IMG/VR virus record: IMGVR_UViG_2711768056_000012
Coordinates: 1-12,778 of that record
DNA length: 12,778 nucleotides
Strand: one strand, 5' to 3'
Source of the DNA: a virus
Lineage: Duplodnaviria > Heunggongvirae > Uroviricota > Caudoviricetes
The position numbers and the translations under genes were made by a program. Numbering within the stretch: position 1 is the first letter of the stretch; each line of letters starts with the position of its first letter. Positions 1 to 9,369 of the stretch are shown in pieces. Under the pieces are notes generated by a model. That model was not told where the DNA came from. It worked only from the letters and a program-made list of their open reading frames with translations, and made no database searches.

Positions 1-192
1 TCAGGAGCATTTCTGATTAACGCCACCGTTAAGAATCCACCCTTCAACAGCTTCACGAAGGTATGATTTGGGGTGGGTTCTGACTGGCTTCGGAAATCCG
101 TGCCGTTTGGTATAGTTCCAGATTGTCTGACGTGATGAAACACCGAGCTTGTTCATCACTTCTTTCTCAGGAATCAGGCTGGTATCGGTCAT
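1..192 (-). CDS. Xis/AlpA-family small DNA-binding protein (putative excisionase), 63 aa
   Basis: Complete ORF with ATG at 192..190 and TGA at 3..1. GGAGA Shine-Dalgarno about 7 nt upstream. Translation has an AlpA/Xis-like pattern (GVSSRQTIWNYTKRHGFPKPV ... EGWI). Sits at the distal end of the leftward operon where lambdoid xis lies. Family assignment is from recall, not a search. Confidence 0.5.
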   Translation of the reverse strand: MTDTSLIPEKEVMNKLGVSSRQTIWNYTKRHGFPKPVRTHPKSYLREAVEGWILNGGVNQKCS

Positions 193-271
193 CTTAATTC
201 TCCAGGCAAAAATAAACCGCCATACAGCGGCTCTATCAGATATGAACAGGCCTCATCGAGTGTGAGGCGGG

Positions 272-616
272 TTAGTCCTTGCGTAGCTCGCTGATTCTTC
301 TGTAAGTCTCTGGTGCTTTGTTCCCGTACGTCTTCATTTCAGACTTCAACAGAGCAACGAGTGAATCCCATTCGTTGAGGATTCCTTTGAATGCCGGAAC
401 GCGCTTTGCAACCTTGTCGAATGAATCCCTGATTTCTGGGATCTGCTCAACAAGTGCAACGCATCGTCGGAAATCGGCTGCGTCATGTGGAGCGCCGAAG
501 TGATGACCATAGATATTCTTTTTCAGGCCACATGCGATTGAGGCAAGAGTTGCGCTACTGATGCCGACATCGCCAGTCGATTGCCATTTCAAAACCTTCA
601 TAGCCAAATCTGACAT
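272..616 (-). CDS. hypothetical phage protein, 114 aa (start taken at internal ATG 616)
   Basis: ORF-track frame 272..643. ATG at 616..614 is preceded by GGAGA (revcomp of 621..625) at good spacing. The longer 643 start would run into the upstream hairpin. No recognisable motif. Confidence 0.45.
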   Translation of the reverse strand: MSDLAMKVLKWQSTGDVGISSATLASIACGLKKNIYGHHFGAPHDAADFRRCVALVEQIPEIRDSFDKVAKRVPAFKGILNEWDSLVALLKSEMKTYGNKAPETYRRISELRKD

Positions 617-620
617 TTCT

Positions 621-652
621 TGTCTCCAATAAAAAACCGCCATCAGGCGGTT
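621..652 (-). terminator. putative intrinsic terminator (7-bp stem, 4-nt loop, T-tract) on leftward transcript
   Basis: Plus strand aaccgcc-atca-ggcggtt (635..652) preceded by an A-run at 627..634, so the minus-strand RNA has a hairpin followed by UUUUUUAUU. Sits between the 57-aa ORF and the 114-aa ORF. Confidence 0.4.
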
Positions 653-812
653 TGGTGTTCTTTCAGTTCTTCAATTTGAATATTGGTTACTTCTGCATGT
701 GCTATCTGCGCCCATATCATCCAGTGGTTATAGCAGTCATTGATGTCCTCTGCTTCGATAACTCTGTCGAATGGCTCTCCATTCCATTCACCTGTGACTC
801 GGAAGTGCATTT
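639..812 (-). CDS. small hypothetical protein, 57 aa (below ORF-track cutoff)
   Basis: Hand-translated: ATG 812..810 preceded by GGAGA at 6-nt spacing, giving MHFRVTGEWNGEPFDRVIEAEDINDCYNHWMIWAQIAHAEVTNIQIEELKEHQTA. Stop lies in the loop of the 635..652 hairpin. Confidence 0.3.
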
Positions 813-820
813 ATCATCTC

Positions 821-848
821 CATAAAACAAAACTCGCCGTAGCGAGTT
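821..848 (-). terminator. putative intrinsic terminator downstream of the AT-rich moron gene
   Basis: Plus strand aactcgc-cgta-gcgagtt (831..848) preceded by A-rich 821..830. On the minus strand this is a 7-bp stem hairpin followed by UUGUUUUAU. Confidence 0.45.
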
Positions 849-898
849 CAGATAAAAGAAATCCCCGCGAGTGCGAGGATAGTTACTTGTTCATATTA

Positions 899-1180
899 TT
901 AATCGTCAATGTATTTTGAGCATTGTGGGCAATCATCAATCCCACAATACGATTCATATGCATCCTTTATTGCGTCGCGGGCTTCAGTAAGAGTATTGAA
1001 TAAGTTGCAGCTATTATCTTTTTGATATAGGTAAGTTCCTAATTTATAAGCAGAAGAAGCATCATTTCCGCTGTCTAAAATTACATCGTTATGGATTCTG
1101 CACCTTGCAAGAACTCCTGATCCCATAAGGGTCTGCATAGCCCATTGCTCTTGATCTTCACACAAATCATGAATGCTCAT
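899..1180 (-). CDS. AT-rich moron: small Cys-containing hypothetical protein, 93 aa
   Basis: ORF-track frame 899..1198 begins at a GTG; the first ATG is 1180..1178 (MSIHDL...) with a GAGAGGTG SD-like sequence upstream. Local GC is visibly lower than the neighbours (a 60-nt hand count at 901..960 gave about 35% versus about 53% in a sample at 11041..11100). Flanked by an AT-rich upstream region (1199..1294) and a downstream hairpin terminator. C-terminus has C-x4-C-x2-C (YCGIDDCPQC). Confidence 0.5.
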   Translation of the reverse strand: MSIHDLCEDQEQWAMQTLMGSGVLARCRIHNDVILDSGNDASSAYKLGTYLYQKDNSCNLFNTLTEARDAIKDAYESYCGIDDCPQCSKYIDD

Positions 1181-1294
1181 TTCAACACCTCTCTTCACGT
1201 TTCACACACGTTAAGATTAACAGTGTTTTTACATGCTTTGGAAGATTTATTTTATAAAAACTCTTTTAATACAAATAGATATAATAGTTCACTA

Positions 1295-2122
1295 TTATAG
1301 CTCCTTTAATCGAGGCGGTTCTGGTAGTGGCATCCAGTGTGACGGCTCACATACCCCCTCAACACCATTCATGTAAAAGAATTGAAATAACCCTTTACCT
1401 TTGTGAAACCCTACCATCTGCTCTTTTGTGTCTGAGCAATAAACCAAAACATCTTCTTCGTTCGGCATTCGCTCACTACAGCTTATCCAACCATCCGGAG
1501 TTACCGGAGAGTTGCCATTCACAAGGTCAGCTCGAACATATAGCGTGTCATCATGGTGCTGATTGTGGCTGCACCACGTTAATTCGCTTAACTCGCCATC
1601 TTCTGGCCATACTCCAGCCGTTTGCAGCCAGATATGGGCTGGCGCATCTTTGCAAGGTGTATTAACTGGCAACTTGTAAGTTTGGCTTACAGGTTCGGCA
1701 CCATGAAGCATGGCGTCGCTCCGCTCTATGCCATCCAGCGCGATTCGCAGTGCATGAATTGTGGTAGAGCTATCGTTTGGGGCTATTCCATATCGCTCGA
1801 ATACAGCTAAATGGTTGCGCATAATCTCAGGCGTAAGCTCTTTGTAAGCATAAGCAAGAGGCTCTGATGCATTATCCGGCACAACCGACGCAGGCGCGGC
1901 AGCATAAACAGGAATAACGTCCGGTTGCTCTTTATTGCTTTCATCCGTTAAAGCCCAGAATAATTTTCCAGCCGGATGTTTGAAAATATAAGCAACTGGA
2001 TCTGCTTCCAGCGATGCCAGTGCAATTTCATAAGCCCGGCGTTCAATATTGTCTCGAACGTCCAGGCTGCTGATACGCTCTTTGATTTCTTTAATCAGTT
2101 CTTTGTCGGTGAAAGTGGTCAT
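1295..2122 (-). CDS. phage protein with C-terminal DUF551-like domain, 275 aa
   Basis: ORF-track frame 1295..2245. Start taken at ATG 2122..2120 (MTTFTDKELIKEI...), preceded by AAAGGAGAG and abutting the upstream gene stop (TGA-T-ATG). The C-terminal stretch DGWISCSERMPNEEDVLVY...GFHKGKGLFQFFYMNGVEGVCEPSHWMPLPEPP resembles the DUF551 domain common in enterobacterial prophage early-left genes (recalled). Confidence 0.55.
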   Translation of the reverse strand: MTTFTDKELIKEIKERISSLDVRDNIERRAYEIALASLEADPVAYIFKHPAGKLFWALTDESNKEQPDVIPVYAAAPASVVPDNASEPLAYAYKELTPEIMRNHLAVFERYGIAPNDSSTTIHALRIALDGIERSDAMLHGAEPVSQTYKLPVNTPCKDAPAHIWLQTAGVWPEDGELSELTWCSHNQHHDDTLYVRADLVNGNSPVTPDGWISCSERMPNEEDVLVYCSDTKEQMVGFHKGKGLFQFFYMNGVEGVCEPSHWMPLPEPPRLKEL

Positions 2123-2123
2123 A

Positions 2124-2732
2124 TCACTCTCCTTTAATGCGAATGCCAGCGGCGCGGATAGATTTCCATTGTTTCCACATTCGGTTGAAGTCTGTGCCTG
2201 ATAAGGTTGCGTTACGGTATCCAGTTTCAGTACGCAATCCTTCAAGCGTCGATTTGGAGATACAAATTGAATGCATTACCCATGATTCAAACAAATCACG
2301 CTCCCGGGCTTCGCAACTTTGCTTACTCATCTCTTCGATACGTTCAGCCATCGCAGCACACTCTTCAAAGTTGCTTAATGCTTTTCGCTCCCATTCGGCG
2401 CATTGTTTTCCAAGCTCTGCAATCAGCTTGTCTTTGCCTTCCAGCTCAACACGCAGCTTCCCTACCGTTAGCGCAATATCCTCGTTCTCTTGGTCGCGGC
2501 GTTTGATGTATTGCTGGTTCCTTTCCCGTTCATCCAGTAGTGCCAAAGCAACCTTTGGATTAAAGGCAGCAATAAATTCAGCGTTGTTTTTCAGAACGTG
2601 TTGCGCAATGGCCTGACTACTTAGTCGGACCTCATAACCACGTGCGCCACGGTGTGGTTTATATGAGTCCCAGTCTCCCCACGTTGCTTTCTCTGCCGCC
2701 TCACGCAGTGCCTGGTAATTAATTTTGGTCAT
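2124..2732 (-). CDS. hypothetical phage protein, 202 aa, coiled-coil-rich (possibly Ea22-like)
   Basis: ORF 2124..2732, ATG 2732..2730. Stop abuts the next gene start. The central region is charged and heptad-like (LALLDERERNQQYIKRRDQENEDIALTVGKLRVELEGKDKLIAELGKQ). Ea22-like assignment is tentative. Confidence 0.5.
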   Translation of the reverse strand: MTKINYQALREAAEKATWGDWDSYKPHRGARGYEVRLSSQAIAQHVLKNNAEFIAAFNPKVALALLDERERNQQYIKRRDQENEDIALTVGKLRVELEGKDKLIAELGKQCAEWERKALSNFEECAAMAERIEEMSKQSCEARERDLFESWVMHSICISKSTLEGLRTETGYRNATLSGTDFNRMWKQWKSIRAAGIRIKGE

Positions 2733-2733
2733 A

Positions 2734-3033
2734 TCACATCACCCTGAAGCCGTTGCATTTACGTAAGAAATCGCAGATATAGCCTTTCATTTTTTCATGC
2801 CAATCTCGATCATTCCCATTGCACCAACCATCAGGTGGAGTCCAGTTTTCTATCAGAGCAGCCATTTTCTTTGCTTTCGCCGGAGTAGCTGTTGCGGTAT
2901 CGCAGTAATGACGAGTGTTAACCAACGCATCCATACCATCGATATCAAGTACGCAAAACCATGTGTGATTCGGCATTTCAACAGATGGTATTTGTTGCCC
3001 ACGTCGACGTTTATCAATAAGACATACAGTCAT
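2734..3033 (-). CDS. hypothetical protein, 99 aa
   Basis: ORF 2734..3033. Its ATG (3033..3031) overlaps the TGA (3032..3030) of the upstream gene in an ATGA arrangement, suggesting translational coupling. No recognised motif. Confidence 0.5.
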   Translation of the reverse strand: MTVCLIDKRRRGQQIPSVEMPNHTWFCVLDIDGMDALVNTRHYCDTATATPAKAKKMAALIENWTPPDGWCNGNDRDWHEKMKGYICDFLRKCNGFRVM

Positions 3034-3656
3034 GGTTCCACCTTCTCTATTTGCTTAAGACCGTCTCTCACTGCATTAAGTACGCGTTCCAGATACTGGT
3101 ATTTCGGGTTTGGTACCGTTGGCCAGTCGGCATACCACGGATCATCACCAAAGAGATTCAGCAGTTTGTTACCGACGCCGAAACAACAGCAGCTTTCTTT
3201 TACGTCATCGGCGTTTTCCGCCTCGTCCCACATTTCGCGAGCCTGTACCGCGTCGATTTCTCTCTCTCTTCGTAACTTTATGATTTCTGACTTCACGAAA
3301 AGCAGATTTGCATCGTTGTCATCGTCGACCGTGCTTCGCAGTTGAGGTTCGAAATAGCCGATTAGATACTCGTTGCTGACCCGCTTAATGAACGTCTGCA
3401 CATCATCACCGCCCATAGCAAACCAAGCCGCAGTCCACGCTTTTCCGTAGCAGGTGATGGTGATTCTTCCCTTACCAGGTTCGTAGTTTTCAATCATCAC
3501 TCGAACCGGATCTAGTCGCTCTGCACCGGTTATAACGAATGACAACACATCAATCTTTTCAACCGTTACACTCACTGTTTGCCTCCTTTGCTCGCTGATT
3601 CCACTCTGCTCTAACCTCTGAATAAAAAATCGCGCAGTCATTTCCAGGAGCTGCAT
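3030..3656 (-). CDS. hypothetical protein (about 208 aa; start uncertain)
   Basis: ORF-track frame 3030..3767 overlaps the Lar-like gene for over 200 nt at its 5' end. Candidate ATGs at 3656 and 3641 have only weak SDs; an in-frame GTG at 3548 just after the Lar stop is also possible. Contains an acidic patch (STVDDDNDANLLF) and a CCC motif. Confidence 0.45.
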   Translation of the reverse strand: MQLLEMTARFFIQRLEQSGISEQRRQTVSVTVEKIDVLSFVITGAERLDPVRVMIENYEPGKGRITITCYGKAWTAAWFAMGGDDVQTFIKRVSNEYLIGYFEPQLRSTVDDDNDANLLFVKSEIIKLRREREIDAVQAREMWDEAENADDVKESCCCFGVGNKLLNLFGDDPWYADWPTVPNPKYQYLERVLNAVRDGLKQIEKVEP

Positions 3657-6661: not shown

Positions 6662-6723
6662 AAAGAAGATTTCCAATAATCAGAACAAGTCGGCTCCTGT
6701 TTAGTTACGAGCGACATTGCTCC

Positions 6724-6751
6724 GTGTATTCACTCGTTGGAATGAATACAC
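6724..6751. repeat. 9-bp inverted repeat (GTGTATTCA ... TGAATACAC) in the leftward transcript
   Basis: gtgtattca at 6724..6732 and its reverse complement tgaatacac at 6743..6751, separated by 10 nt. Intergenic, between the 80-aa ORF and the tL1-like terminator. Confidence 0.4.
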
Positions 6752-6789
6752 AGTGCAGTGTTTATTCTGTTGCTTATTCCAAAGCAAAT

Positions 6790-7032
6790 TTAACCATCAA
6801 CAAACTCTTCTGGTAATTTATCAACTATTTGATGACTTATTATCAGCCATTTGCCATCCTTCGTTTCGTATGCATATTTCTGGTCTTTTATCATCAGGTG
6901 TTCGGCTACTGCCTTAACTGCTTGCTCGGTGACATCTTCTTTCTTTCCTACCCACATTCCTTTTTCAGTGTTTAATGTTCCTTGAAAAATACGACCGCTT
7001 AATGGGCTTGCGCCCATAGTTTTTACTCTCAT
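6790..7032 (-). CDS. hypothetical protein, 80 aa
   Basis: ORF 6790..7032. Weak SD; start could alternatively be the ATG five codons in. Lys/Glu-rich. In the lambda ral/ea10 neighbourhood by position only. Confidence 0.45.
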   Translation of the reverse strand: MRVKTMGASPLSGRIFQGTLNTEKGMWVGKKEDVTEQAVKAVAEHLMIKDQKYAYETKDGKWLIISHQIVDKLPEEFVDG

Positions 7033-7096
7033 GTATCAGCTCTCAAATAATTGGTTTGCTGCCAAAACAATGAACCATCCGGAAATTCCAGATAGT

Positions 7097-7321
7097 TCAT
7101 AATTCACTCTTCAATACTTCCAGCTTACTAATCGCCGAAAGATATCCGCGCTGATAGGGCATCATCATTCCTTCGAGCTTGCCACTTCTTAACTCCTTCC
7201 TGAGCAATTGTATTGCTTGATCAATAACCTCTGACTTAGCGTCCTTTATGGCTTGCTTGCGGGGCTTTGCTTTCTGCTTTGGCAGATTTCTCAAGCATGA
7301 TGGAATGTATGTCTGATTCAT
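7097..7321 (-). CDS. hypothetical basic protein, 74 aa
   Basis: ORF-track frame 7097..7324 begins at GTG; the ATG at 7321..7319 is preceded by GAGGT at 6-nt spacing and lies directly after the N stop (TAA 7327..7325). Confidence 0.45.
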   Translation of the reverse strand: MNQTYIPSCLRNLPKQKAKPRKQAIKDAKSEVIDQAIQLLRKELRSGKLEGMMMPYQRGYLSAISKLEVLKSEL

Positions 7322-7324
7322 CAC

Positions 7325-7597
7325 TTACCTCGCTGTCAGTTGTTTTGATTTCCGGTAGCCTGCCGCGTAAATGGCTACGTTTGGCAGGCAAATACTTCCA
7401 CTGCATTCATCTTCCTTCTTGCAGCGAAGGCTTCCGAGTGATGCTGCTTTGTCTGCTCTGACGCAACCAGAGAGCTTTAGCGCAATTTTTCGCGCCAGTC
7501 GCTGTTCTTGCATTGCCTGCTCACGTTGAGCCTGTCTGCGTGCTCTGCGGCGATTTCTGGCGTTATCGTCAGCCAGATATGTAATGACTACTGTCAT
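7325..7597 (-). CDS. N: N-type transcription antiterminator, 90 aa
   Basis: ATG 7597..7595 with a GGAGG SD. N-terminal arginine-rich motif (DNARNRRRARRQAQREQ). C-terminus AAGYRKSKQLTAR resembles the P22-type N (gene 24) C-terminus as recalled. First gene downstream of pL and nutL. Confidence 0.85.
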   Translation of the reverse strand: MTVVITYLADDNARNRRRARRQAQREQAMQEQRLARKIALKLSGCVRADKAASLGSLRCKKEDECSGSICLPNVAIYAAGYRKSKQLTAR

Positions 7598-7746: not shown

Positions 7747-7791
7747 TGCCAATATGTTCCGTTTGGCTACCAGCGTCCTGCTGATGGCTAA

Positions 7792-7820
7792 AGAATACTG
7801 TAGGTATTTTATTGTGTAAA
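7792..7820 (-). promoter_or_regulatory. pL promoter candidate (-35 TTTACA, 17-bp spacer, -10 TATTCT)
   Basis: On the minus strand: -35 is the revcomp of 7815..7820 and -10 the revcomp of 7792..7797, with an exact 17-nt spacer. Both hexamers overlap operator sites. Confidence 0.5.
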
Positions 7821-7879
7821 TACCCAAGGTATTTATTTTTGATGAAATAATGATAAGCAAATGAATACAAAGGATATTT
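7793..7879. promoter_or_regulatory. oL operator cluster: three 17-bp sites with AATAC-N5-GTATT dyad symmetry
   Basis: GAATACTGTAGGTATTT (7793..7809), AAATACCCAAGGTATTT (7818..7834, a perfect palindrome) and the weaker GAATACAAAGGATATTT (7863..7879). Same half-site consensus as the oR sites. Confidence 0.6.
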
Positions 7880-7965
7880 ATTTTTTTCGGTGTCTGCTTG
7901 TTCAGTGCTTTTTATGCGGGATATGTGAAGTGGATCCCGATAGCTATTGCTGCCGGGATTATAGG

Positions 7966-8334
7966 TTAGTCAGCGAAGGTTAAGACGAGAATTACCTTAA
8001 TGATATCTGCTACAACAGACACGGCCATAGATAAACCAAAGACAATCCAAGCCATAGAGATGTCTTCACTACCATCGTATAGAGTTCCGTAATCACTGGT
8101 GTAAGGCGTAAATGTCGCGCCTTGATACAACAGGTATAAGCTTGAACCATAGAGGATAAATGCAGATATCCCTTGTATTGCTATGATCACTAGAATCATG
8201 AAACGAGCTGATCTATGCGCCCAAGCCTGGCTTATTTTTTCTGATAGAGATTTCGCAATAAAAGCATGCGCTAAGCCGTAAATTGTCGAGATTGCCAACA
8301 TCCCAAAAAAGCTTGCTATAGCGGTTCCAACCAT
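7966..8334 (-). CDS. small integral membrane protein in the rexAB-equivalent slot (candidate exclusion/abortive-infection protein), 122 aa
   Basis: ORF-track frame 7966..8355 begins at TTG; the ATG at 8334..8332 is preceded by AAGGGG and lies 17 nt downstream of the cI stop, consistent with co-transcription with cI. Three long hydrophobic segments separated by a basic loop (KSLSEKISQAWAHRSAR) and an acidic loop (TPYTSDYGTLYDGSEDIS). No similarity to lambda RexB that I can recognise. Confidence 0.6.
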   Translation of the reverse strand: MVGTAIASFFGMLAISTIYGLAHAFIAKSLSEKISQAWAHRSARFMILVIIAIQGISAFILYGSSLYLLYQGATFTPYTSDYGTLYDGSEDISMAWIVFGLSMAVSVVADIIKVILVLTFAD

Positions 8335-8351
8335 AATCGCCCCTTGCGTGA

Positions 8352-9068
8352 TCAAACCAGCCTTAGTTTTGTCTCAATTGCAACGCCTATAATCTTGCAG
8401 TTTCCATTGATTGGCACGAGAGGCCATGCAGGATTAAGTCCCTTGAGGTATTTATTTCCGCCGTCGATTATCAGCTTCTTGAATGTTGCTTCGTTAGAGT
8501 CAGAAAGTTTTGCTATGACCAAGCTGCCGTTGATCGCCTCCCTTCCGGTATCGAAAAGAACGAATGTTCCCTCTGGAATGCTTAACCCAACCGGTGCCGT
8601 CATTGAATCACCTTCCACTTTAAGCCAGAACGCATTACCTTGAATATGCGCGTCAGACTCAAGCCAAACATCTATGTCTTTAATGGTGTATGGTTCGCAT
8701 GCTTCACACCACGAGCCAGCCTGGATACTGCTTAACACCGGATACCTCTTTCCTGCTCTGTATTCCCCTGCATACCTTACGTTGGCATCGCTCTTAAGGC
8801 TTTCTGCCTGTTCTGCAACCTTGGCAGCAATTGACTGGCTAAAATCAGCAATTGAGACTTGCAACAGTCGTGCAAAACCAGATGCAACCTCAACGTTTAG
8901 CGCGTTTCTGCCATTAAGATAATGCCCTACCGCTCCTTGGGTGATACCCAGTTCATCAGCGATTGAGTATTGGGTTATCCCCAATTCTTTCTTTTTTGAC
9001 TCATACAAAGCCTTAAGCCGCTTAGCGTCTTCGAGCTGTTCTGTCGTCAGTGATTTTTTATTTTCCAT
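8352..9068 (-). CDS. cI: CI repressor (HTH DNA-binding domain plus LexA-like S24 autopeptidase domain), 238 aa
   Basis: N-terminus closely resembles lambda CI as recalled (KKSLTTEQLEDAKRLKALYESKKKELGITQYSIADELGITQGAVGHYLNGRNALN). C-terminal domain carries the Ala-Gly cleavage site (SIQAGSW), the catalytic Ser (EGDSMTAP) and Lys (TFKKLI). Divergent from cro across an operator region. Confidence 0.92.
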   Translation of the reverse strand: MENKKSLTTEQLEDAKRLKALYESKKKELGITQYSIADELGITQGAVGHYLNGRNALNVEVASGFARLLQVSIADFSQSIAAKVAEQAESLKSDANVRYAGEYRAGKRYPVLSSIQAGSWCEACEPYTIKDIDVWLESDAHIQGNAFWLKVEGDSMTAPVGLSIPEGTFVLFDTGREAINGSLVIAKLSDSNEATFKKLIIDGGNKYLKGLNPAWPLVPINGNCKIIGVAIETKLRLV

Positions 9069-9145: not shown

Positions 9146-9174
9146 TTGTTCATGGTTAATAACGGAGAGTGCAT

Positions 9175-9369
9175 ATGATTCGAATGACACTTGCCGATTA
9201 CGCCAAAATCCATGGACAGGCTAAAGCAGCCAGTGACTTTGGTGTAATCCAGTGCGCTATCAGCAAGGCCATTCTGGCAGGCCGTAACATTATGGTTACG
9301 GTAAAGCCTGATGGCAGTGTGATTGGAGAGGAGGTTCGACCTTTCCCAAGCAACAAGAAAAACAAATAG
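9175..9369 (+). CDS. cro: Cro repressor, 64 aa
   Basis: ATG at 9175 preceded by GGAGAG (9163..9168); the ORF-track start at 9169 is a GTG two codons upstream. Translation [62 protein letters not shown] matches lambda Cro closely as recalled. Confidence 0.88.

Follow-up and report, generated by a model that had tools for sequence, protein, structure and literature searches.

The AT-rich gene at the far end of a lambdoid pL operon corresponds to a known protein of the lambda Ea8.5 family

The closest described relatives of the locus considered here are ECO111_1119 of Escherichia coli O111:H- str. 11128 and the ea8.5 gene of bacteriophage lambda (lambdap36, positions 29374-29655). Expression of lambda's exo-xis region is held to result from N-antiterminated transcription from pL, and the predicted lambda terminators t3, t4 and t5 are listed in Table 4 of the same report (PMC4195576). 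Lambda ea8.5 was found by CRISPRi to be non-essential (PMC10695390). When present in multicopy, it significantly repressed paQ and slightly affected pI, and pE was unaffected (PMC7093339). The structure of Ea8.5 suggests a regulator, and a role in cell-cycle synchrony has been discussed (PMC8614690). In yeast two-hybrid experiments the lambda protein paired with Int, Q, Ren and itself, and these partners were called promiscuous (PMC3224144). The fold is described in the literature as a hybrid of a homeodomain-like structure and a zinc finger.

The morons of lambdoid phages were reportedly defined by Juhala, Hendrix and co-workers in 2000, for HK97 and HK022, and the classic examples were described in the late operon. 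A sequence-only reading had proposed such an element for positions 821-1294 of the window, which is the whole stretch of 12,778 nucleotides that was analyzed. That reading was sound in recognizing an AT-rich, cassette-like unit, and it failed on the absence of relatives and on the terminator assigned to that unit. Like a moron, the locus is additional DNA lodged between elements that adjoin each other in relatives, its composition is deviant, and a terminator follows it. Unlike the classic morons, it shares its terminator with empty sites, so that the terminator lies outside the inserted DNA, its gene is located within the early operon and co-oriented with it, and its promoter is only putative.

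The genes of the window are those of a lambdoid prophage's early region, with a cI-type repressor (8352-9068, minus strand), Cro (9169-9369), cII, O and a primase-helicase on the rightward side. Leftward, and all on the minus strand, lie N (7325-7597), cIII, a Rad52-type recombinase, SSB, the Abc2 anti-RecBCD protein and a DUF2737 protein, then Ead/Ea22 (2124-2732), a DUF551/EaA-type protein (1295-2245), the Ea8.5-like protein and a homologue of lambda orf55 (lambdap35), and lastly a 123-aa ORF and an AlpA/Xis-like protein (1-192). The Ea8.5-like gene is positioned at the distal end of the leftward early (pL) operon and is co-directional with pL, and N-antiterminated read-through is thus the default expectation for its expression. 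The features of the locus are listed in Table 1.

Table 1. Features in and around the AT-rich segment (window coordinates).
Feature	Position	Strand	Remarks
Terminator hairpin, bidirectional; equivalent to lambda predicted t5	634..653	.	marks left end of shared block
Homologue of lambda orf55	643..810	-	PHROG 676; 55 aa
Second intrinsic terminator; equivalent to lambda predicted t4	830..849	-	terminator scan; fold; present in lambda
Intrinsic terminator, hairpin and T-tract; equivalent to lambda predicted t3	861..880	-	terminator scan; lambda; N7 empty site
ea8.5-family gene	899..1180, stop codon included	-	93 aa; PDB 2M7A / WP_000022062.1; RefSeq CDS has same coordinates
AT-rich upstream gap	1181..1294	-	114 nt; Shine-Dalgarno sequence and -10-like hexamers
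Perfect palindrome TATAATAGT-TC-ACTATTATA, 9-bp arms	1280..1299 (extended 1277-1302)	.	overlaps DUF551 stop codon
Last six codons and stop codon of DUF551 gene	1295..1313	-	cassette side of right-hand mosaic junction

Two of the neighboring reading frames deserve comment. The mechanically derived DUF551 ORF overlaps the Ead/Ea22 gene by 122 nt. Translation probably begins instead at the ATG at 2122 (residue M42), which lies 1 nt past the ead stop codon; the PHROG matches of the protein start at residues 40-42. For the 123-aa ORF (272-643), which separates orf55 from the Xis-like gene, the only matches are to PHROG (phrog_1229). Its HK022 annotation reads "N15 early protein homolog", and lambda lacks it at the equivalent position.

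Translation of the ea8.5-family gene from the ATG at 1180 yields the 93-residue protein, with the Shine-Dalgarno sequence GAGG (approximately 1190-1187) positioned 6 nt upstream. The mechanical ORF begins further upstream, at an in-frame GTG (1198). The ATG start (MSIH...) agrees with that of lambda Ea8.5 (MSIN...) and with the RefSeq protein. The product had been described from its sequence as having no obvious relatives, and homology and structure searches had been called for; when these were run, a known family and a solved structure were found. The protein matches Pfam PF20735 (Lambda_ea8_5, "Bacteriophage lambda ea8.5-related domain") with a score of 58.7 bits versus a cut-off of 27, the match extending over residues 8-93 and the full profile (positions 1-90 of 90). 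PHROG 6325 is matched too, with an E value of 5.6e-57, and NCBIfam has no model that matches the protein. A phmmer search against the PDB sequences gave chain A of entry 2M7A with an E value of 3.9e-62 and all 93 residues identical. The title of that entry in Foldseek is Enteropathogenic Escherichia coli O111:H- str. 11128 ORF ECO111_1119, "similar to bacteriophage lambda ea8.5". The AlphaFold model has a pLDDT of 85.5, and its sole significant Foldseek matches are 2M7A and 2M7B. Some newer RefSeq records name the protein "Ea8.5 family phage-derived protein".

The window protein and ECO111_1119 (WP_000022062.1) are identical at 93 of 93 positions, and ECO111_1119 occupies the same prophage position in E. 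coli genomes. The two proteins do not differ, and the differences are confined to the prophage mosaic around the gene. Lambda Ea8.5 also contains 93 residues, aligns colinearly without gaps, and shares both the C-x2-H...C-x2-C pattern and the C-terminal ...IDD. The order of elements is likewise the same, namely an ea22-type gene, ea8.5, t3, t4, orf55, t5 and xis, and the GC contents of the two genes are similar (38.7% in lambda versus 38.3% in the window). Within the gene, however, the identity amounts to only 41% at the amino-acid level and 50% at the nucleotide level. The upstream non-coding sequences are unrelated, that of lambda being 191 nt long with 39% GC and that of the window 114 nt long with 27% GC and a palindrome. 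The upstream neighbor differs as well, being the DUF551/EaA-type gene in the window and ea22 itself in lambda. PP_3909 of Pseudomonas putida KT2440, the protein in entry 2M7B, is more distant, with approximately 20-22% identity, a phmmer E value of 0.05 and a different host.

A word-indexed protein search retrieved near-identical sequences only, and an exhaustive HMMER search was needed to reveal the family. Against 1.84 billion representatives, the latter gave 89 clusters at E <= 1e-3, almost all of which are stand-alone proteins with 85-100 residues. When 63 family members are aligned, exactly four columns are invariant, namely C27, H30, C84 and C87, and C79 is present in 5 of the 63. On these grounds the zinc site is likely C27-x2-H30...C84-x2-C87, which would bridge the N-terminal hairpin and the C-terminal helix, rather than the local C-x4-C-x2-C. 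The motif C79-x4-C84-x2-C87 pointed out in the sequence-only reading does exist in the protein, and was mis-assigned as a zinc motif. In a few longer proteins the Ea8.5 domain is found at the C-terminus (P0034, 343 aa; P0053, 182 aa; P0092, 184 aa; P0093, 150 aa), and their N-terminal parts might hint at function.

Profile score, size and colinearity, the CHCC set, the fold and the exo-xis location all agree with membership in the lambda Ea8.5 family, the exo-xis location being typical of that family and not universal. By its sequence, the 899-1180 gene is that of an already known small zinc-binding phage protein of this family. The finding is an ordinary one, since the product is identical to a solved structure, the family is known and the slot is the same as in lambda. 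As a discovery it holds little that is new, for protein family, structure and genomic slot are already described.

The compositional claim was borne out by sliding-window GC and codon-usage analysis. The GC content is not uniform; it is 36.1% for 821-1294 versus a window mean of 46.5% (standard deviation of 3.6% for 474-nt windows), and only 0.25% of the 474-nt windows are as low. The global minimum of the scan, 35.7%, lies at 840-1313. The 899-1180 gene has a GC content of 38.3% and a deviant GC3 of 0.32, as compared to 0.47 ± 0.05 for the 22 other genes of the window, and the gap upstream of it (1181-1294) has only 27.2% GC. Given that gene GC, GC3 and gap GC are all low, the compositional island is real. 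The contrast was overstated when the remainder of the sequence was put at about 53% GC; the genes flanking the AT-rich stretch have approximately 47%, and the difference is about 10 points, not 18. Two other low-GC islands were observed. One, at 6662-7135 (38.6% GC), holds a DUF7446 gene (6790-7032, GC3 of 0.32), and the other, at 7790-8263 (37.8% GC), covers the N-cI gap and an unassigned 129-aa ORF (7966-8355) that abuts cI. These could be other accessory or moron-type insertions.

The boundaries of the variable segment are provided by comparison with other phages and prophages. Identity to lambda is 91% over the 272 nt that follow the stop codon and 50% (nucleotide) over the gene, the latter value being made up of 46% over the first 235 nt and 70% in the last 47 nt. 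This jump in identity marks a sharp mosaic break at the gene's 3' end. Among sequenced phages, similarity on the left side extends to 883-890, and the right flank (N7, HK022, Louie and HK106) matches only at 1314-1339/1345, which corresponds to the DUF551 "PLPEPP" motif, and then at 1463-1517. The variable segment, where these flank matches end and with the terminators excluded, thus extends from approximately 886 to 1313 and takes in the last six codons of DUF551, the AT-rich leader and the gene together with a few bases beyond its end. Phage N7 provides the empty site, in which a distance of 2 nt separates the EaA/DUF551-type stop codon from the t3 hairpin. In HK022, Louie, Gally and HK106 the ea8.5 slot is occupied by unrelated genes, and the other accessory genes of the slot include Lar-like, queuine tRNA-ribosyltransferase-like and ASCH genes. 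A block of 713 bp (627/628-1339) is common to three E. coli prophages at 98.0-98.7% identity, and nothing else nearby is shared. These prophages reside at different integration sites (beside dsdC or sbcB), and their upstream genes encode a dATP/dGTP pyrophosphohydrolase-domain protein, an Ead/Ea22-like protein or a short DUF551 protein. This block, which accompanies the ea8.5 allele, includes the orf55 homologue. In L014, the closest diverged allele, there are four non-synonymous and no synonymous changes in the gene and no changes in either gap, numbers that are too few to interpret.

A hairpin with a T-tract after the gene had been noted beforehand, and it is indeed present, at two sites on the minus strand (880-861 and 849-830). 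In an RNA fold of 815-905 both hairpins form, with a z score of -3.6. The three hairpins of the window match lambda t3, t4 and t5 almost base for base, and the scan locates terminators at the equivalent lambda positions. All three terminators lie inside a 250-nt stretch and enclose the 55-aa orf55 homologue immediately before xis; they are approximately 91% conserved with lambda. Since t3 and t4 are present in lambda and t3 also at the N7 empty site, the pair belongs to the backbone outside the variable segment and not to the cassette; the claim that the gene has its own terminator cannot be upheld. With respect to the moron proposal, the segment is inserted between elements that are adjacent in N7 and is compositionally distinct (GC of 36% versus 46.5%, GC3 of 0.32 versus 0.47), and no terminator of its own was found on the inserted DNA. 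What stands is a cassette-like mosaic unit: the segment from approximately 886 to 1313 behaves as a mosaic, moron-like module.

At >= 99% identity the allele is carried by 111 of 5426 complete E. coli genomes (about 2%), including STEC O121 strains (RM8352, O121:H19); the lambda-type allele is carried by 246. A DNA search with 880-1300, run in distant mode against 50,697 phage records, gave no match, and tblastn gave lambda-type Ea8.5 only, at 41% identity. Prophages are the only known carriers of the window allele. Of window 1-3100, at most 66% is covered at a single locus in any complete E. coli genome of the collection. In approximately 18 E. coli genomes the gene is split by IS2 at window position ~984/985, as for example in E. 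coli APEC O78 (L019, 1263-2696). In one strain (L020, 1520-1747) a deletion truncates the gene and fuses it to other early-region remnants.

More distant family members are encountered elsewhere. Two lie in the nin region between the replication genes and RusA/NinG/Q (P0012 and P0013), and a third, P0016, is beside an Ea47-like gene. Loci of the family placed elsewhere include L010 (3001-3279), L018 (866-1147) and L015 (3001-3294). Each of the relocated members has non-coding gaps on both sides, the genes of L010, L017 and L018, all from enteric hosts, have a GC content 7-11 points under that of their surroundings, and in L018 a terminator follows directly after the gene. From the nin and Ea47 positions, the flanking gaps and the low GC, the family behaves as a portable, compositionally distinct unit, and its occurrence in the nin region and by an Ea47-like gene indicates that it moves between accessory hot spots of lambdoid genomes.

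The AT-rich non-coding stretch upstream of the gene had been given a length of 95 bp. It is AT-rich, and its length is as listed in Table 1; the value of 95 bp was probably arrived at by counting from the GTG at 1198, which gives 96 nt. The TATAAT-like hexamers cited in favor of an upstream promoter are also there, TATAAT at 1299-1294 and TATTAT at 1286-1281 on the minus strand. A scan of either strand of 500-1700 gave no promoter with at least 9 of 12 matches, the mean for shuffled sequences being 3.0. With a looser scan the best pairs, TTAAAG-17-TATTAT and AGAACC-17-TATAAT, reached 8 of 12 and are no worse than the best matches in the window's own pR region. The RNA fold of the upstream leader (1175-1320) is unremarkable, with a z score of -1.7. 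A search of 500-1600 against Rfam at E <= 1 gave only STnc420, mir-277 and rsmX, all far under their gathering scores, and an RNA gene in this region was rejected, the matches being sub-threshold chance.

Several alternative explanations for the locus were weighed. That the low-GC island is compositional noise, and the ORF not a real gene, might be argued from the existence of the other low-GC islands at 37.8% and 38.6%. The island holds the lowest-GC stretch of its size in the sequence, however, the protein has already been expressed and its structure solved, and the four invariant ligand residues are common to 89 family clusters at 50% identity. The identity to 2M7A and the invariant residues refute this explanation, which can be given practically no credence. 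A more serious alternative is that of a moron in the strict sense, with the AT-rich gap serving as a sigma-70 promoter in the repressed prophage, t3 and t4 ending the transcript, and the protein serving the lysogen, e.g. in modulating superinfection or defence, in cell-cycle control or in host gene regulation, rather than the lytic program. The distinct composition, the empty site in relatives and the hypervariable slot with its other accessory genes are in keeping with it, as are the perfect TATAAT and the TATTAT upstream, the 8 of 12 pairs comparable to those of the pR region, the family members that stand alone in the nin and b regions, and the terminator that L018 has for its own. A passage in PMC4195576 that cites ribosome profiling describes lambda ea8.5 as expressed in uninduced lysogens. 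As far as that passage goes, such expression cannot come from the repressed pL and hints at an additional promoter; the lambda leader is not homologous to that of the window. Arguing against a strict moron are the lack of any promoter of at least 9 of 12 on either strand of 500-1700, the backbone nature of the terminators, which occur at empty sites too, the co-directionality of the gene with pL and the breakage of the gene by IS2 in approximately 18 of the 111 E. coli carriers. Nothing points to the defence or lysogenic-conversion gene that had been envisaged; indeed, in PADLOC-DB 2.0 no family was matched at E <= 0.01 by the Ea8.5-like protein or by six neighboring proteins. On balance a strict moron is regarded as unlikely.

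The upstream palindrome invites a further possibility, namely that it is an operator bound by the Ea8.5-like protein or by another dimeric regulator, such that the unit would be autoregulated with its -10 elements in the operator arms. The 20-bp palindrome (9+2+9) is perfect and unique in the window, it is equalled in only 4 of 1000 shuffled versions of 1181-1313, and both -10-like hexamers lie in it; the self-interaction reported for lambda Ea8.5 in yeast two-hybrid experiments would suit a dimeric regulator. However, no comparable palindrome precedes ea8.5 in lambda or the gene at three of four other loci of the family, and a family-wide operator was rejected for this reason. The upstream gap is identical in all close relatives, and its conservation is consequently uninformative. 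Moreover, such repeats arise more easily in AT-rich DNA, and DNA binding by Ea8.5 is hypothetical. An operator at this site is accordingly thought highly improbable. A broader proposal would have the Ea8.5-family genes be mobile, AT-rich, self-contained units that move among the exo-xis, nin and b regions, are expressed in the repressed prophage via weak leader promoters, here perhaps gated by the 1280-1299 palindrome, and act on the host or on incoming phages and not only on the lysis-lysogeny switch. In that case the protein might be, for example, a small modulator of transcription or cell division, or an anti-defence factor. We give this proposal a decidedly small chance.

The explanation that is preferred, and which we consider very probable, is that the feature represents the ea8.5 locus in a lambdoid prophage whose early region is P22/HK620-like, that is, a mosaic AT-rich segment transcribed by read-through from pL and encoding a regulator that biases toward lysis. 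The Ea8.5-like gene is the last but one of the accessory genes in the pL operon, lying in the exo-xis region with the DUF551/EaA-type gene on one side and orf55-xis on the other. In this view the AT-rich segment of approximately 425 bp (~886-1313) is exchanged among lambdoid prophages by recombination in conserved flanks, namely the t3/t4/orf55/t5 block to its left and the DUF551 "PLPEPP" motif to its right. During infection or induction, transcription would proceed by N-antiterminated read-through from pL. Any N-independent transcript starting in the AT-rich gap would be expected to stop at t3/t4, giving a monocistronic mRNA of approximately 400 nt. The 93-residue protein is a small helical bundle, presumably held together by the Cys27-His30-Cys84-Cys87 zinc site. 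By analogy with lambda, it would function as a non-essential regulator that biases the decision to lysis by damping cII-dependent promoters (paQ, and weakly pI), probably through protein-protein or DNA contacts of its helical domain. We infer this regulatory role for the window allele from lambda phenotypes that were obtained from multicopy plasmids with a protein only 41% identical.

The value that remains in this locus is that Ea8.5 was named decades ago and the window allele is the one with a solved structure, the source strain being EPEC O111. The cassette boundaries, the CHCC set, the tandem terminators and the upstream palindrome defined here provide handles for promoter-mapping and deletion work.
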